From a virus (lineage: Duplodnaviria > Caudoviricetes): a DNA stretch of 64,000 bases. The position numbers and the translations under genes were made by a program. Shown here in pieces: positions 11,885-46,905 of this stretch. Position 1 is the first letter of the stretch; each line of letters starts with the position of its first letter. Location of the stretch: IMG/VR virus record IMGVR_UViG_3300037504_000149, one strand, 5' to 3'. The notes under the pieces are model-generated. The model had not been told where the DNA came from and ran no database searches. It saw nothing but the letters and a program-made list of their open reading frames with translations.

Positions 11885-12157
11885 GGAAGAAGTGAAGAGT
11901 AGGAGGGGGAGGCACGATAGTTATAAGAGATACAAGGGAGGGGAGGGAGTAGTTGTAGGAGAGACAGGAGGGACACAGGGGAGAGATGAGGTAGGGGAGG
12001 ATAGAGTTAGGAGGGAGTAGTTGTAGGAGGGGGAAAGCTATGATGATGGAGGGGAGGGAAGTTAGAGGGGACATAGAAGGAGTATAGCAGGAGTATAGAG
12101 GGGGGGGGATTGTACTGCCTTCTGCGTCCCCCCGAATATCTACCCCCCTCTACCTCT

Positions 12158-12336
12158 ATTTTAACATATTTTTTATTAAATGTCAAGTGTCATCTTGCTA
12201 TATTATTAAAATCGAATATAAAATAAAATATACATTTTTTTTATTATAACATATTATTTATTAAATGTCAAGTAAAATCTTTTATTTTTTTATTTTTATA
12301 ATCTTTTATTATAACATATTATTTATTAAATGTCAA
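12158..12336 (-). promoter_or_regulatory. three tandem leftward consensus sigma70 promoters
   Basis: Minus strand TTGACA-N17-TAAAAT (12186-12158) and TTGACA-N17-TATAAT (12271-12243, 12336-12308), each with a TGn extended -10. Confidence 0.85.
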
Positions 12337-29003: not shown

Positions 29004-29060
29004 CAAAACTGATATTATATGCTATACTGTATATAGAAACTCAAACACAAAGGAGAAGTT

Positions 29061-31544: not shown

Positions 31545-31929
31545 GGGGCTGATAAGGGTTCGACGTGCGAGTAAAAGTGAGGTAGCATCCCGTGGTTGGT
31601 CTCTAGGCCACGTAAAAAAGAGACCAAACAACAACAGCCGAAAATGCTGTTCCCTTGGCTGCTTAAAAAGCCGCTCCTCTATGGAGCTAGGCTCGTAGCC
31701 CGCCCCCGGAAAGGTTTCTCTGCACCTGACTGGATAAGGCGTCAAAAAGCAGGGGTCCGACTTGGAGTTACCTAATCGCTCCTAAAAGGACTACAGAGTA
31801 ATTAGGTAGGGTGCGCGAGACTGTGCCGTATCAGCCGGACCGCACCGACACGACATGATACGGCTATGGATGTAGATGCCGAAGCGGCACTTGACACGGA
31901 CGCGGGTTCGATTCCCGCCAGCTCCACCA
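31545..31929 (+). ncRNA. ssrA: tmRNA; tag (A)AENAVPLAA*
   Basis: 5' GGGGCTG pairs with 3' CAGCTCC-ACCA including a G3:U pair; T-arm GGGTTCGATTCCC; tag ORF 31637-31666; promoter TTGACA-N17-TATCAT at 31501. Confidence 0.95.
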
Positions 31930-37182: not shown

Positions 37183-37398
37183 ATGAGACACCACTTCAAA
37201 CAACCCCAGGATAAGGATGGTAAACCTATCCACATTCAGCAGAGAGTTGCAGTAGACTCTACTCCTGAAGACGTTTGGAAAGGTGGTTTCTCAGGCACGG
37301 TCATTAGAATTATCAGTACCTTTAAGGTTACGGTATCTGATTTGAAGGGTCATGCCTTTGATGTACCTGCACACAAGACAAAAGTTTTGGAAGGTTAA
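37183..37398 (+). CDS. small SH3-like barrel protein
   Basis: DKDGKPIHI...FSGTV...V.DLKGHAFDV. Confidence 0.55.
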   Translation: MRHHFKQPQDKDGKPIHIQQRVAVDSTPEDVWKGGFSGTVIRIISTFKVTVSDLKGHAFDVPAHKTKVLEG

Positions 37399-37399
37399 A

Positions 37400-38140
37400 A
37401 TGAATGATGCTCTAGGTGATCGTATGAAGAAGTATGAGAATACTACAAGGTATTACCTACCTCCCCGTACACCTATCATTATTAGAGTAGATGGTAAAGC
37501 CTTTCACACTTATACTAAAAATTGTATAGAACCATTCAGTAATGTTCTAATAAACATAATGAATGAAGTTGGGTTACATCTTTGTGAGAATATCCAGGGT
37601 GCTGAACTAGCATATATTCAAAGTGATGAAATTTCTATATTAGTTCATTACTATAAAAAGTATACTTCATCTGCATGGTTCGATAACAACTTGCAGAAGC
37701 TGGTAAGTGTTTCAGCTAGTCTAGCTACAGAAGCATTCATTAACAGTTTGATGCGGCGTCCCATCGCTTGGCAGTCACAGTTTGGTGGTAAAACACCTAA
37801 CTTTGATAGCCGAGCTTTTTGTATACCAGTAGCGGACGTATGCAATTACTTTATCTGGAGGCAGAAAGATTGGGAACGTAATAGTTTGCAACTACTAGCA
37901 AGAAGTTTATACTCTCATAACGAATTACACGCTAAGAAGCGTGATGAATTGCACGATATGTGTATAGCTAAAGGTAATAACTGGAACCAGCTACCAGGGT
38001 ATTATAAACGAGGTAGATGTGTCAAGTTACTTTGTAATACTGATACTCCTGTTACTAAACGAGAGTGGGTTGTAGAAACTCCTCCCATATTTACTAAAGA
38101 TAGAGATTACGTTGAAGAACATCTGTTTGTTGAACAATGA
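37400..38140 (+). CDS. thg1: tRNA(His) guanylyltransferase Thg1-like protein
   Basis: LGDRMKKYE, IRVDGKAFH, YIQSDEIS, FDSR, NYFIWRQ.D..RNS. Confidence 0.92.
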   Translation: MNDALGDRMKKYENTTRYYLPPRTPIIIRVDGKAFHTYTKNCIEPFSNVLINIMNEVGLHLCENIQGAELAYIQSDEISILVHYYKKYTSSAWFDNNLQKLVSVSASLATEAFINSLMRRPIAWQSQFGGKTPNFDSRAFCIPVADVCNYFIWRQKDWERNSLQLLARSLYSHNELHAKKRDELHDMCIAKGNNWNQLPGYYKRGRCVKLLCNTDTPVTKREWVVETPPIFTKDRDYVEEHLFVEQ

Positions 38141-40461: not shown

Positions 40462-41163
40462 ATGATAGCATTTCTAGGTGATATACATGGGTCATTTGAC
40501 GCACTCTATTTATTTGAAGAACTCCTCCGATCTGTACTAGGTGATGAATTGGAGGAGATTGTTGTATTGGGAGATGTGGGTATCTGGCCCGAAACAATAA
40601 TCCATATTCCCGATTTCAAATCTAGGATTTCTTTCATCCGAGGGAATCATGAAAGTTATCCTCTATTAGAGGAGTGGGATAAATTAGATTTACCTCTCCA
40701 TTATTGGAAGGATGGCGAAACTCGCAATCTATATAATTATCGGTTTACAGCATTAGGCGGGGCTTATTCTATCGATCGTCATCATCGTAAATTAAACGGA
40801 ACTGACTGTGCGGCGTGGTATAGAGAAGAAATACCGAATCGTGAAATGGCAGAAAAAGTTGGTACAGAGGACGCTACCGATGTACTACTAACCCATGCAC
40901 TCCCTCCTGAGCTTGCTAAGCGTGTTTTCTCGCGTATTAAGATAAATAGTGATGAGAATGGGGAGTTGTCCCCTATTCTGTATGGTACGATTCCGTTTAT
41001 CTTCTGTGGTCATTATCACATCTACAGGGATACGCGAGTACAGATAAGTGAGGACTACTCGCTCAACATCATCGCGTTACCTAGCTGGGCTCCTATGACA
41101 GGACGACAGTTTATCCTACTTGATGAGGACGGCTTTTATGTTGTTGATCCAGATAAATCATAA
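40462..41163 (+). CDS. calcineurin-like metallophosphoesterase
   Basis: GDIHG, LGDVG, RGNHE, LTH and GHYH. Confidence 0.9.
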   Translation: MIAFLGDIHGSFDALYLFEELLRSVLGDELEEIVVLGDVGIWPETIIHIPDFKSRISFIRGNHESYPLLEEWDKLDLPLHYWKDGETRNLYNYRFTALGGAYSIDRHHRKLNGTDCAAWYREEIPNREMAEKVGTEDATDVLLTHALPPELAKRVFSRIKINSDENGELSPILYGTIPFIFCGHYHIYRDTRVQISEDYSLNIIALPSWAPMTGRQFILLDEDGFYVVDPDKS

Positions 41164-43637: not shown

Positions 43638-44876
43638 ATGGATCTAGTTGAAAAAATTAGGCTGTTCCCTACCGAGGAACAAAACAAGCAACTCCGAGAG
43701 TTGGCTGCGTTCTGTCGTGACGCGGCAAACTACATCTCGGAGTTTATCTATACACATCGTTTGCGCTCCAAGGGTGTAGGGACGCTCTACAAACCGGATT
43801 GGGAAACGCGAGCTGCAAAAGATGATCCAGACGCCGTTTCACTTTATAAGGTATTGTGCAGTGCTTTCGATTTTAGTGGCAAGAAGTCTCTAGCCACCGC
43901 GATTATTCAAAGGGTAAAATCATCCTATAAGTCCACCAACGCACGAAACATCACACAAGGGGATGCCTTTTATCGGGCAGGTAAGGCGAAGTATCGTCAA
44001 TTGAAGAAAGATGGAATAAAAGGGGAAACACTTAAGGCTGCTGCTAAGCTTACTCAAGAAGAAAAGAACGAGATAGCTGAACGGTATGGCATGACAAAGC
44101 CGCTCAGCTTCAATCCCTTTATTCCTACCCTAAAACAGAATACTAAATGGAAGGAAAACACAGTCAGTTTCTTCGGTATCTCAAGTATACCTTTTGCGTC
44201 TCGACTGGAAAACATAGAGTCTCGTGACGCGATTGTTAAGCTCAACAAAAACAACAAGTGGCTGCTACACCTTCCCGTAGAGACCTCCGAAGAGGAAGTT
44301 TACGAACCTGCTGGTTGGTTGGGAGTAGATGTCGGACTGGCAAACCTGGCTGTCACCTCTGAGGGCACGGTCTATTATGGCGGTGAGAACCGTCGCCGTG
44401 GTGAAACACGGTTCAAGCAACGTCAGCGGATGCAGAAGAAGGGTACTAAATCCGCGAAGCGTAGACTGAAAGCTCTTTCCGAGAAAGAAACAAGGTGGCG
44501 AAAAAATCTCTGCCACGAGATCAGCACCGCTATCGTCCGACGTGCGAAAGAGCTTCGCTATGGTGTAGCGGTAGAAACGCTGAAAAACATTCGGCGAAAC
44601 GTGAGACAATCGAGGAAGCTGAATCGTCAGCTTCACGGTAGTTTTCCTTTTGGTATGCTTCTTTCCATGCTAGAATATAAAGCAGAGAAAGAGGGTGTAC
44701 CATTCCAGAAAGTGGATCCTAAAAATACCTCCAGGACGTGTCCAAAGTGTGAATATGTAGCAGAGAAAAACAGAATTAGCCGTACACACTTTAAATGTGT
44801 GGAATGCGGCTACAAAAACTACGCAGACCATGTGGCGGCAACTAACATTTCTCGGATAGCAGAAACCGGGATATAA
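43638..44876 (+). CDS. CRISPR-associated TnpB/Cas12f-like RNA-guided nuclease
   Basis: RuvC-I GVDVG, RuvC-II VAVETL, zinc finger CPKC...CVEC, RuvC-III ADHVAATNI; adjacent to the array; no tnpA. Confidence 0.9.
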   Translation: MDLVEKIRLFPTEEQNKQLRELAAFCRDAANYISEFIYTHRLRSKGVGTLYKPDWETRAAKDDPDAVSLYKVLCSAFDFSGKKSLATAIIQRVKSSYKSTNARNITQGDAFYRAGKAKYRQLKKDGIKGETLKAAAKLTQEEKNEIAERYGMTKPLSFNPFIPTLKQNTKWKENTVSFFGISSIPFASRLENIESRDAIVKLNKNNKWLLHLPVETSEEEVYEPAGWLGVDVGLANLAVTSEGTVYYGGENRRRGETRFKQRQRMQKKGTKSAKRRLKALSEKETRWRKNLCHEISTAIVRRAKELRYGVAVETLKNIRRNVRQSRKLNRQLHGSFPFGMLLSMLEYKAEKEGVPFQKVDPKNTSRTCPKCEYVAEKNRISRTHFKCVECGYKNYADHVAATNISRIAETGI

Positions 44877-45009
44877 TGTTGGTGGCGTCGGGGCGTAGGG
44901 AGACGCCCATACAGCGGAGACGAGATCCGAACTGATGGCGTAGCACAGACGATAGGATCACTTGAGTCTACTGCTGAGCACAGCACTACTTTTCGAGAGC
45001 CTTCTGGTG

Positions 45010-45166
45010 ACATAGAAGGCCGGGAGGTTCTCGAAAAGGTATATTGTTGATAGTAGGATAGTTACGGCAAGGGTGCGTTTTCTAGTACATTTCTCGGGGC
45101 CTGAAAGTGGGGGTTCTCGAAAAGGTGAAAATAAACCTAGTAATATCAACAAGTTAAAAGACTGGG
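45010..45166 (+). promoter_or_regulatory. CRISPR leader
   Basis: GGTTCTCGAAAAGGT twice (45026, 45112); IHF consensus TATCAACAAGTTA at 45144-45156. Confidence 0.75.
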
Positions 45167-45983
45167 GTTTTAACGACTTCTGCGGTGTGCTTGTGCATCT
45201 CCCTGGTAGCTTCTTGGGGTTTTTGTATCGTTTCGGAAGTTTTAACGACTTCTGCGGTGTGCTTGTGCATCTCCCTACAAAATACATCATCGGTTGGCCT
45301 AAGTTGTCCTTCTGTTTTAACGACTTCTGCGGTGTGCTTGTGCATCTCCCTATATAGAAATCATGAACTCAGGAGGTTCACTATGAGTTTTAACGACTTC
45401 TGCGGTGTGCTTGTGCATCTCCCATACTGCATCGACCAGACACGCCTACCCTATCATTAGTTTTAACGACTTCTGCGGTGTGCTTGTGCATCTCCCTATT
45501 GGTAGTGAGACAGTGGACAAGGCCATAAATGGCCGTTTTAACGACTTCTGCGGTGTGCTTGTGCATCTCCCATACCATTGAGCCTGATCTGGTAGTGCTA
45601 TGCCTCATTGTTTTAACGACTTCTGCGGTGTGCTTGTGCATCTCCCAGCATAGTAAACCTCCTGAGTTCATGATTTCTATATAGTTTTAACGACTTCTGC
45701 GGTGTGTTCGTGCATCTCCCCTGCTGCTACATCGGTCCTAACACAGATCAAAGGGAGTTTTAACGACTTCTGCGGTGTGTTCGTGCATCTCCCCTGCTGC
45801 TACATCGGTCCTAACACAGATCAAAGGGAGTTTTAACGACTTCTGCGGTGTGTTCGTGCATCTTCCTATAGTAGAGAGTAGAAAGTTACATACATGGTCT
45901 CGGGTTTTAACGACTTCTGTGGTGTGTTTGTGCATCTCCCACCCTTCGCCATACACCTTCCGCAAAGTGTTTGTGTATCTCCC
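45167..45983 (+). CRISPR. CRISPR array: 11 repeats of 37 bp, 10 spacers (35-38 bp), degenerate terminal repeat
   Basis: GTTTTAACGACTTCTGCGGTGTGCTTGTGCATCTCCC at 45167, 45239, 45314, 45387, 45460, 45535, 45610, 45684, 45757, 45830, 45904; remnant ends at 45983. Confidence 0.98.
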
Positions 45984-46011
45984 AGCCCTCTCACCCATCC
46001 CAAGGAACGAT

Positions 46012-46905
46012 ATGTCTCTTCGACGATTAGGTATCTACCATAGAGTAGATAATGATGGTTTTGCTTGTGCTGCTATTCTGCGGCATAGGTTTCCCTCCAT
46101 CGATCTTTTTGGGATGAATTATGGGGATGAAGAACCCCATTTCATTGAAGATTATGATCAGGTTTACATAGCTGATTTTTCTCTCCCCCCCAAGAGGATG
46201 CAGCATCTAAATTCATTAACTGAGATGCATTGGATCGATCATCATCAAACAGCTATAAATGATTGCAAAGATCTAGATTTACTAGGTTTACGTAAAATAG
46301 GAGAAGGTGCTTGTTCTCTCCTTTGGCAGTATTTATATCCTCACTACCCTGTACCTGAAGCTATACAGCTCATCTCAGACTATGATGTGTGGAATTTATC
46401 TGATACGGTTATACACTTTCAGTATGGTTTACGTCTGATGGGGGATATACGCTTAGCTGATGAAATTCCTGAGTTCGAAGGAACAGCTACTAAGGAGTGG
46501 CTAGATTACCAAAACCTCTCGTACTTTTGGGAAAACCTTCTCAGAGGCTCTCAGAGCCTCATAGACAGCTTAAAAGACGAAGGCAGTGTCGTATACCGTT
46601 ATGTACGCTCACAGCTTTCTAAAGCCATTAAACGGGGCGTAGCGATGTCCTTTCACGGACACGACGCCCTTTTTGTTATGACACCTGACAACCCCTCCCT
46701 TATGGCAGAACTGTGGAAAGATTATGATGTTTGCATCAAAGCTTTCTATGACCTTTCTGCTTCAAAGTGGAGGCACACCTTATTCTCCCACCCCGGCGGT
46801 CCTAATGTAGGTAAGCTAGCTAAGAAATACGGTGGGGGCGGGCACGAGCATTGTGCTGGGTTTATGTGGGATCACTTGGCGCTACATAAGAAACTAGCTG
46901 AGTAA
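46012..46905 (+). CDS. DHH/DHHA1 family phosphoesterase (NrnB-like)
   Basis: YH..D.DG, IADFS, WIDHH and GGGGH..CAGF. Confidence 0.9.
   Translation: MSLRRLGIYHRVDNDGFACAAILRHRFPSIDLFGMNYGDEEPHFIEDYDQVYIADFSLPPKRMQHLNSLTEMHWIDHHQTAINDCKDLDLLGLRKIGEGACSLLWQYLYPHYPVPEAIQLISDYDVWNLSDTVIHFQYGLRLMGDIRLADEIPEFEGTATKEWLDYQNLSYFWENLLRGSQSLIDSLKDEGSVVYRYVRSQLSKAIKRGVAMSFHGHDALFVMTPDNPSLMAELWKDYDVCIKAFYDLSASKWRHTLFSHPGGPNVGKLAKKYGGGGHEHCAGFMWDHLALHKKLAE

Follow-up and report, generated by a model that had tools for sequence, protein, structure and literature searches.

A complementary spacer pair in a phage CRISPR array suggests one target site captured twice, once in flipped orientation

Spacers 3 and 7 of a CRISPR array carried by a phage are near-perfect reverse complements of each other (34/36 identity between spacer 3 and the reverse complement of spacer 7), and the site they represent contains a ribosome-binding site and a start codon. 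The best explanation of the whole, to which we give about an even chance of being right, is that one target was captured twice, from two alleles, and that spacer 7 was inserted flipped. Below we describe the pair and its array, the presumed effector, the target found in the same sample, and the other readings of the pair.

The spacer pair and the array that holds it

The features on which the comparison is built are the following:

45351-45386, + strand: spacer 3, 36 nt; mRNA-sense copy of the target site, TATATAG...AGGAGG-N6-ATGA
45647-45683, + strand: spacer 7, 37 nt; antisense copy of the spacer 3 site, with 2 differences from spacer 3
45167-45983, + strand: CRISPR array with 11 full 37-nt repeats, spacers between 35 and 38 nt long, and a half repeat of 17 nt at its end

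An earlier note on this DNA, made from its letters, had described the two spacers as reverse complements sharing one exact boundary, and both statements were borne out. A repeat search recovered arms at 45350-45385 and 45649-45684 (36 nt, 97% complementary). In the window, i.e. the whole 64,000-nt stretch of DNA analyzed, a search allowing three mismatches found the spacer 3/7 sequence at these two places only, and it was found in 0 of 100 shuffles. Written in the orientation of spacer 3, the two are identical over positions 1-28 and 30-35, and differ at position 29 (C in spacer 3, T in spacer 7) and at position 36 (A vs C). They have one exact common boundary, where spacer 3 has its 5' end and spacer 7 its 3' end; at the opposite end they are off by one base.

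Spacer 3 contains AGGAGG-TTCACT-ATG, and hence the AGGAGG-N6-ATG that had been read in it. Two further claims of the earlier note stood in part. The spacers were said to diverge right after the ATG: position 36 does differ, but it is the sole base that can be compared there, and a further difference lies 4 nt before the ATG. The first 10 nt of spacer 3 were said to equal the sequence at 29030, a site that begins 1 nt after a sigma-70-like promoter (TTGACA-17-TATACT). The identity is true, but the match is at chance level. Spacer 3 has six such 10-mer matches across the window, and local alignment of the reconstructed target site to the window gave a score of 28, tied with two other places and inside the range of 22-38 obtained with 30 shuffled queries. 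The SD motif and ATG of spacer 3 also open a 25-codon frame (45383-45460) that runs across repeat 4 and spacer 4; since spacer 3 has imported both signals, ribosomes could bind the array transcript.

The locus has the hallmarks of a CRISPR array: regular 37-nt repeats separated by unique spacers of similar length, matches of spacers 1, 2, 6, and 7 to foreign DNA (non-array contigs of the same sequencing run), and an adjoining effector gene that ends 290 nt upstream on the same strand. Full repeats span 45167-45940 and are followed by a 17-nt 3'-half repeat at 45967-45983; repeats 8-11 are mutated and mark the old end of the array. We read the array along the + strand, each guide following its repeat, on the basis of the gene direction, the conserved leader, the decay at the far end, and the 3'-half repeats. 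A guide 3' of the repeat is the type V arrangement.

Several other details of the array are worth recording. Spacers 8 and 9 (45721-45756 and 45794-45829) are identical and lie between repeats with the same two substitutions, and are thus a tandem duplication of one repeat-spacer unit. The half repeat at 45967 is followed by approximately 28 nt leading into a DHH phosphoesterase gene (ATG at 46012). Three similar half-repeat units occur at 12132-12283 of a related locus, L002; these may be units in decay, or else short guide units. Repeat 1 meets spacer 1 in a terminator-like hairpin with a T run (45201-45219, + strand) which, if active, would lower transcription of the remaining array.

The presumed effector, the leader region and the phage

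Two features upstream of the array are relevant to its function:

43638-44876, + strand: gene for a 412-aa Cas12f/TnpB-like RNA-guided nuclease, the presumed effector of the array
44877-45166, + strand: conserved non-coding stretch between the nuclease gene and the array, a candidate tracr/omega-like RNA plus leader

The 412-aa protein matches the Pfam families Cas12f1-like_TNB (9.7e-22) and OrfB_IS605 (1.6e-12), and its best solved relatives are Cas12f/Cas14 and TnpB, with Cas12f/Cas14 as the best PDB hits. In an alignment of 11 sequences, the RuvC triad (D231, E313, and D397) and the zinc-finger cysteines (C368/371/387/390) are invariant. It is therefore a small RuvC effector that has kept its D-E-D triad and its zinc finger, as in type V-F, and because its catalytic RuvC residues are intact we predict that it most likely cuts DNA. 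Its next relatives score as ordinary TnpB, at 30-45% identity, and a related-locus search returned a single distant TnpB only.

In L002, which comes from an NCBI metagenome assembly, the nuclease is 65% identical and the gene order is the same. The L002 array is syntenic with ours; its repeat is related, with the same GCATCTCCC 3' end, and it too has decayed half repeats. It holds neither a complementary spacer pair nor a TA bias at the spacer starts. The non-coding stretch aligns with 11246-11510 of L002 and with 1833-2123 of a further locus, L003, at 82% mean column identity, and L003 shares both this stretch and the first repeat. A GGGAGGT within the stretch can pair with the repeat end ATCTCCC, a complementarity of approximately 7 nt found by eye.

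No Cas1, Cas2 or Cas4 was found among the ten neighboring ORFs (Pfam and PHROGs), so that spacers would have been taken up through host adaptation proteins, or in an ancestor.

The window belongs to a 229,864-bp contig; its ORFs are mostly short and on the + strand. The array region and a 469-aa ORF had no match in the GenBank phage collection, which thus provides no published record of this phage lineage. The source is best read as a jumbo phage of about 230 kb. ARAGORN finds a tmRNA-like gene at 31545-31929 (tag ENAVPLAA) and a tRNA-Trp at 673-746. Around the array lie genes for a Thg1-like tRNA-His guanylyltransferase (37352-38140), a metallophosphoesterase (40462-41163), and the DHH phosphoesterase mentioned above (46012-46905); synteny with L002 includes the metallophosphoesterase and the gene that follows the array.

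The target site and its molecule in the same sample

Spacer searches of viral and host databases, as the earlier note had envisaged, gave no convincing protospacer, but near-matches were found in the contigs of the phage's own run. Among viral contigs there were 0 matches for the 22-mer core of spacers 3 and 7, for the cores of spacers 4, 5, and 8, and for the promoter flank joined to the start of the site, and a 26-mer used to look for the protospacer had 0 matches among genome contigs. BLAST of spacer 3 alone and of the whole array against GenBank phages and plasmids gave nothing meaningful; the L002 array gave chance-level matches only against phages, and no spacer of either array matches the window, L002 or L003. 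Scanning metagenomes with the 22-mer core returned one match (L001, 2406-2427); the contig is bacterial, and a DsbD-like gene follows directly downstream of the match. We rejected it as the protospacer: the core is matched at 22/22 positions but the full site at 28/36, indistinguishable from a chance match biased by the ribosome-binding site.

The single public run that holds the phage is a tidal-flat metagenome (run X1), whose k=31 contigs we mapped onto the array; no contig aligned to the part between 45333 and 45517. Non-array contigs of the run nearly match spacers 1, 2, 6, and 7. Besides the pair, the spacers concerned are these:

45204-45238, + strand: spacer 1; protospacer apparently on the same target molecule as the spacer 3/7 site
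45276-45313, + strand: spacer 2; diverged protospacer in the same sample
45572-45609, + strand: spacer 6; its protospacer and the spacer 1 site share a strand and are 6.5 kb apart

A contig of 6,564 nt (depth 36.6) starts with 35 nt corresponding to the spacer 1 site (1 mismatch) and ends with 34 nt corresponding to 45576-45609, in spacer 6 (0 mismatches), both on the same strand. A second contig, of 2,116 nt (depth 33.2), has the spacer 7 site at 245-281 with 2 mismatches, preceded on one side by 244 nt of sequence unlike the array, and ends in the last 30 nt of spacer 1, i.e. its overlap with the 6,564-nt contig. Further non-array contigs carry spacer 2 from its fifth base on (45280-45313), bordered left and right by dissimilar sequence, and spacer 6 together with a flank. 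As read from a summary table of the contig matches, the overlaps would give the following layout on the mRNA strand: promoter, spacer 3/7 site, approximately 1.8 kb, spacer 1 site, 6.5 kb, and spacer 6 site. The spacer 1 and spacer 6 sites would hence lie approximately 1.8 and 8.4 kb beyond the spacer 3/7 site, on the same molecule. An arrangement with the spacer 1 site abutting the spacer 7 site was ruled out, since only one end of the 2,116-nt contig is loose, and the 30 nt equal the k-1 overlap. With spacers 7, 1, and 6 near-matched on one strand within approximately 8.4 kb, this molecule appears to be a recurrent target of the phage's nuclease.

The sequence around the site shows what it is. 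In the co-occurring contig the 5' flank of spacer 3 reads ..TGTTATAATA, obtained by reverse complementing the loose end behind 45683. Upstream of the site lies TTCACG-16-TGT-TATAAT-A, with a perfect extended -10 and a fair -35, and the protospacer begins one base after the -10 box; because of this position it would span the transcription start, a 5'UTR of approximately 27 nt, the AGGAGG and the ATG. With a promoter-like flank adjoining it, and an SD and a start codon inside it, the protospacer fits a promoter/RBS target, and this part of what the earlier note had proposed is supported.

The allele present in the sample differs from both spacers and has no 30-mer in common with either, so that neither of the alleles that gave rise to the spacers was found. 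Target and array also seem to differ at position 5 of spacer 1, at position 4 of spacer 6, and at positions 1 and 4 of spacer 2 with more differences further in, although these positions, deduced from contig ends, are less secure. Such mismatches near the PAM-side end may fit escape from a type V guide, with the same reservation. The target is covered somewhat more deeply (33-37) than the phage's own contigs are (17-29). We take the target as foreign because a self-target matching perfectly, or nearly so, would come at a cost if the nuclease is active; it is probably a foreign DNA molecule co-occurring with the phage, a point that is again less secure, and may belong to a rival phage, a satellite, a plasmid or the host. 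The phage contigs of run X1 over 45000-46100 themselves differ in depth, at 28.7 upstream of the array and 17.1 downstream, and there may be more than one phage strain in the sample.

Flanking sequences were inspected for a PAM. The 5' flanks of the targets read CAAGTTA for spacer 6, GATTA followed by CACC for spacer 2, and AATA for spacer 3. They place TTA, TTA, and ATA 5' of spacers 6, 2, and 3, respectively, and suggest a 5'-WTA PAM-like motif, drawn from three sites only, one of them diverged. TA or ATA opens six of the ten distinct spacers, whereas spacer 7 has TATA at its 3' end instead. The ATA found 5' of spacer 3 is the TAT found 3' of spacer 7.

Origin and meaning of the pair

According to the reading that we favor, the prespacer would be a protospacer of 36-37 bp reaching from one base past the extended -10 box to the ATG. 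The site would have been captured in two separate events, from two alleles differing at two bases. Each time, the prespacer would have been cut precisely beside the 5'-WTA motif (ATA in this case, TTA for spacers 2 and 6), and it would have been inserted once in the productive direction, as spacer 3, and once flipped, as spacer 7. The phage's Cas12f/TnpB-like nuclease would then cut the target DNA.

Spacers 3 and 7 have the form of a flipped pair: the same protospacer in both orientations, with one end exact and the other off by one. What favors a single PAM-defined prespacer is that the end they share exactly lies toward the PAM in spacer 3, with the variation at the PAM-distal end. An exact PAM-side end together with a variable distal end is what is expected from a prespacer that is trimmed at the PAM and measured by a ruler. 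A PAM-cut prespacer and a flip would hence account for the shared end, for the one-base difference at the other end, and for the TAT 3' of spacer 7. The earlier note had raised a flipped acquisition as one possibility; the shared boundary indeed falls on the PAM side of spacer 3, and the flip itself is what we infer and favor.

Pairs of this kind are known from other systems. In E. coli, complementary pairs of spacers arise from most protospacers during type I-E adaptation, and a fixed orientation results only if the acquisition motif has been read (Shmakov et al., 2014; PMC4027179). As we propose for our pair, one protospacer there is found in both orientations, only one of which puts the PAM where interference needs it (PMC4027179). 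The E. coli pairs, however, occur across a laboratory cell population whereas here both members lie in one natural array, and ours, which would come from two alleles, shows a one-base difference in length and belongs to a type V-like phage array with no adaptation genes nearby. Closer to the biology of our phage, cas1/2/4 are usually missing from huge-phage arrays, whose targets are co-occurring phages or genes of the host, with intergenic and promoter regions among them (PMC7162821). The locus resembles the type V-F/Cas14 loci of huge phages (Al-Shayeb et al., 2020; PMC7162821) in its compact array, in being carried by a phage of >200 kb, in its conserved catalytic residues, in having no adjacent adaptation module, and in its same-sample and regulatory-region targets, but its effector has only 412 aa and its next relatives are ordinary TnpB. 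By the account of ICP1 (Seed et al., 2013) that is given in PMC7162821, several spacers of the ICP1 CRISPR-Cas system target one short co-resident element, the PLE satellite, as several spacers appear to do here; ICP1, unlike our phage, has a full type I-F system with adaptation genes.

An alternative that we consider possible, if on the unlikely side, is that spacers 3 and 7 were each acquired in the regular, PAM-directed way, from opposite strands of a single favored site, and that both guides work. The site would have been kept in the array because the SD, the start codon and the promoter-proximal bases are hard to mutate, and guides to both strands would then provide redundant cover against escape. 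A type V enzyme that cuts dsDNA can use either strand, the different alleles carried by the two spacers imply separate events, and the apparent target mismatches near the 5' ends of spacers 1, 6, and 2 (from contig ends) have the pattern of escape. In this scenario, though, the far end of spacer 7 would have to coincide by chance with the PAM-side end of spacer 3, which we estimate would happen in roughly 1 of 10 cases.

The earlier note had favored a promoter/RBS module that recurs ahead of various genes in a competing phage, so that one guide would hit many sites; the two spacers would in that case come from two copies. We find this improbable. The site is promoter-proximal with an SD and an ATG, and the two-base difference between the spacers is of the kind that paralogous copies might show. 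Against it, in a k=31 graph any exact repeat of at least 31 nt would break the contig and raise its depth, as the spacer 1 and spacer 6 sequences, which are shared, did break contigs. The site itself is crossed by the unbroken 2,116-nt contig, with unique flanks and at the depth of its neighbor (33.2 vs 36.6), and therefore is not an exact multi-copy module in the target; several copies per target genome, the number that the proposal called for, were not found. No second contig aligned to the site, there is no significant look-alike in the window or L002, and the database searches with the 22-mer core yielded 0 matches in viral contigs and the one partial match (28/36) on a bacterial contig. 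Diverged copies of the spacer 3/7 site may exist.

There is also a small chance that the pair was selected as such, with guides to both strands at the promoter, 5'UTR, and start codon shutting off one gene of the host or of a parasitic or rival element by combining a DNA roadblock with antisense, and not by mere destruction. Finally, an action at the RNA level, in which the spacer 7 crRNA, antisense to the 5'UTR, SD, and AUG, blocks translation or a duplex of spacers 3 and 7 tunes processing, strikes us as very doubtful: the predicted pre-crRNA fold does pair the two spacers over 35 bp, as the earlier note had imagined (MFE -134.6 kcal/mol; z -5.35 vs shuffles), and spacers 7, 1, and 6 would all be antisense if the downstream genes are co-directional with the gene of the ATG, but such pairing is a mechanical consequence of complementarity that any complementary pair would show, the nuclease retains its DNA-cutting residues, and the related L002 array does without a complementary pair.

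Under the reading of two captures and one flip, the complementary pair is most likely one more case of a known, fairly ordinary side effect of spacer uptake, with no new mechanism. It nevertheless provides an internal ruler for a miniature phage CRISPR of a kind barely studied, because it shows which spacer end was cut precisely and points to 5'-WTA. The pair also suggests that uptake was not strictly oriented, as would be expected if adaptation is borrowed. Since the target is in the same sample and most of its sites differ from the spacers, an arms race between phage and element around a 412-aa nuclease becomes testable.
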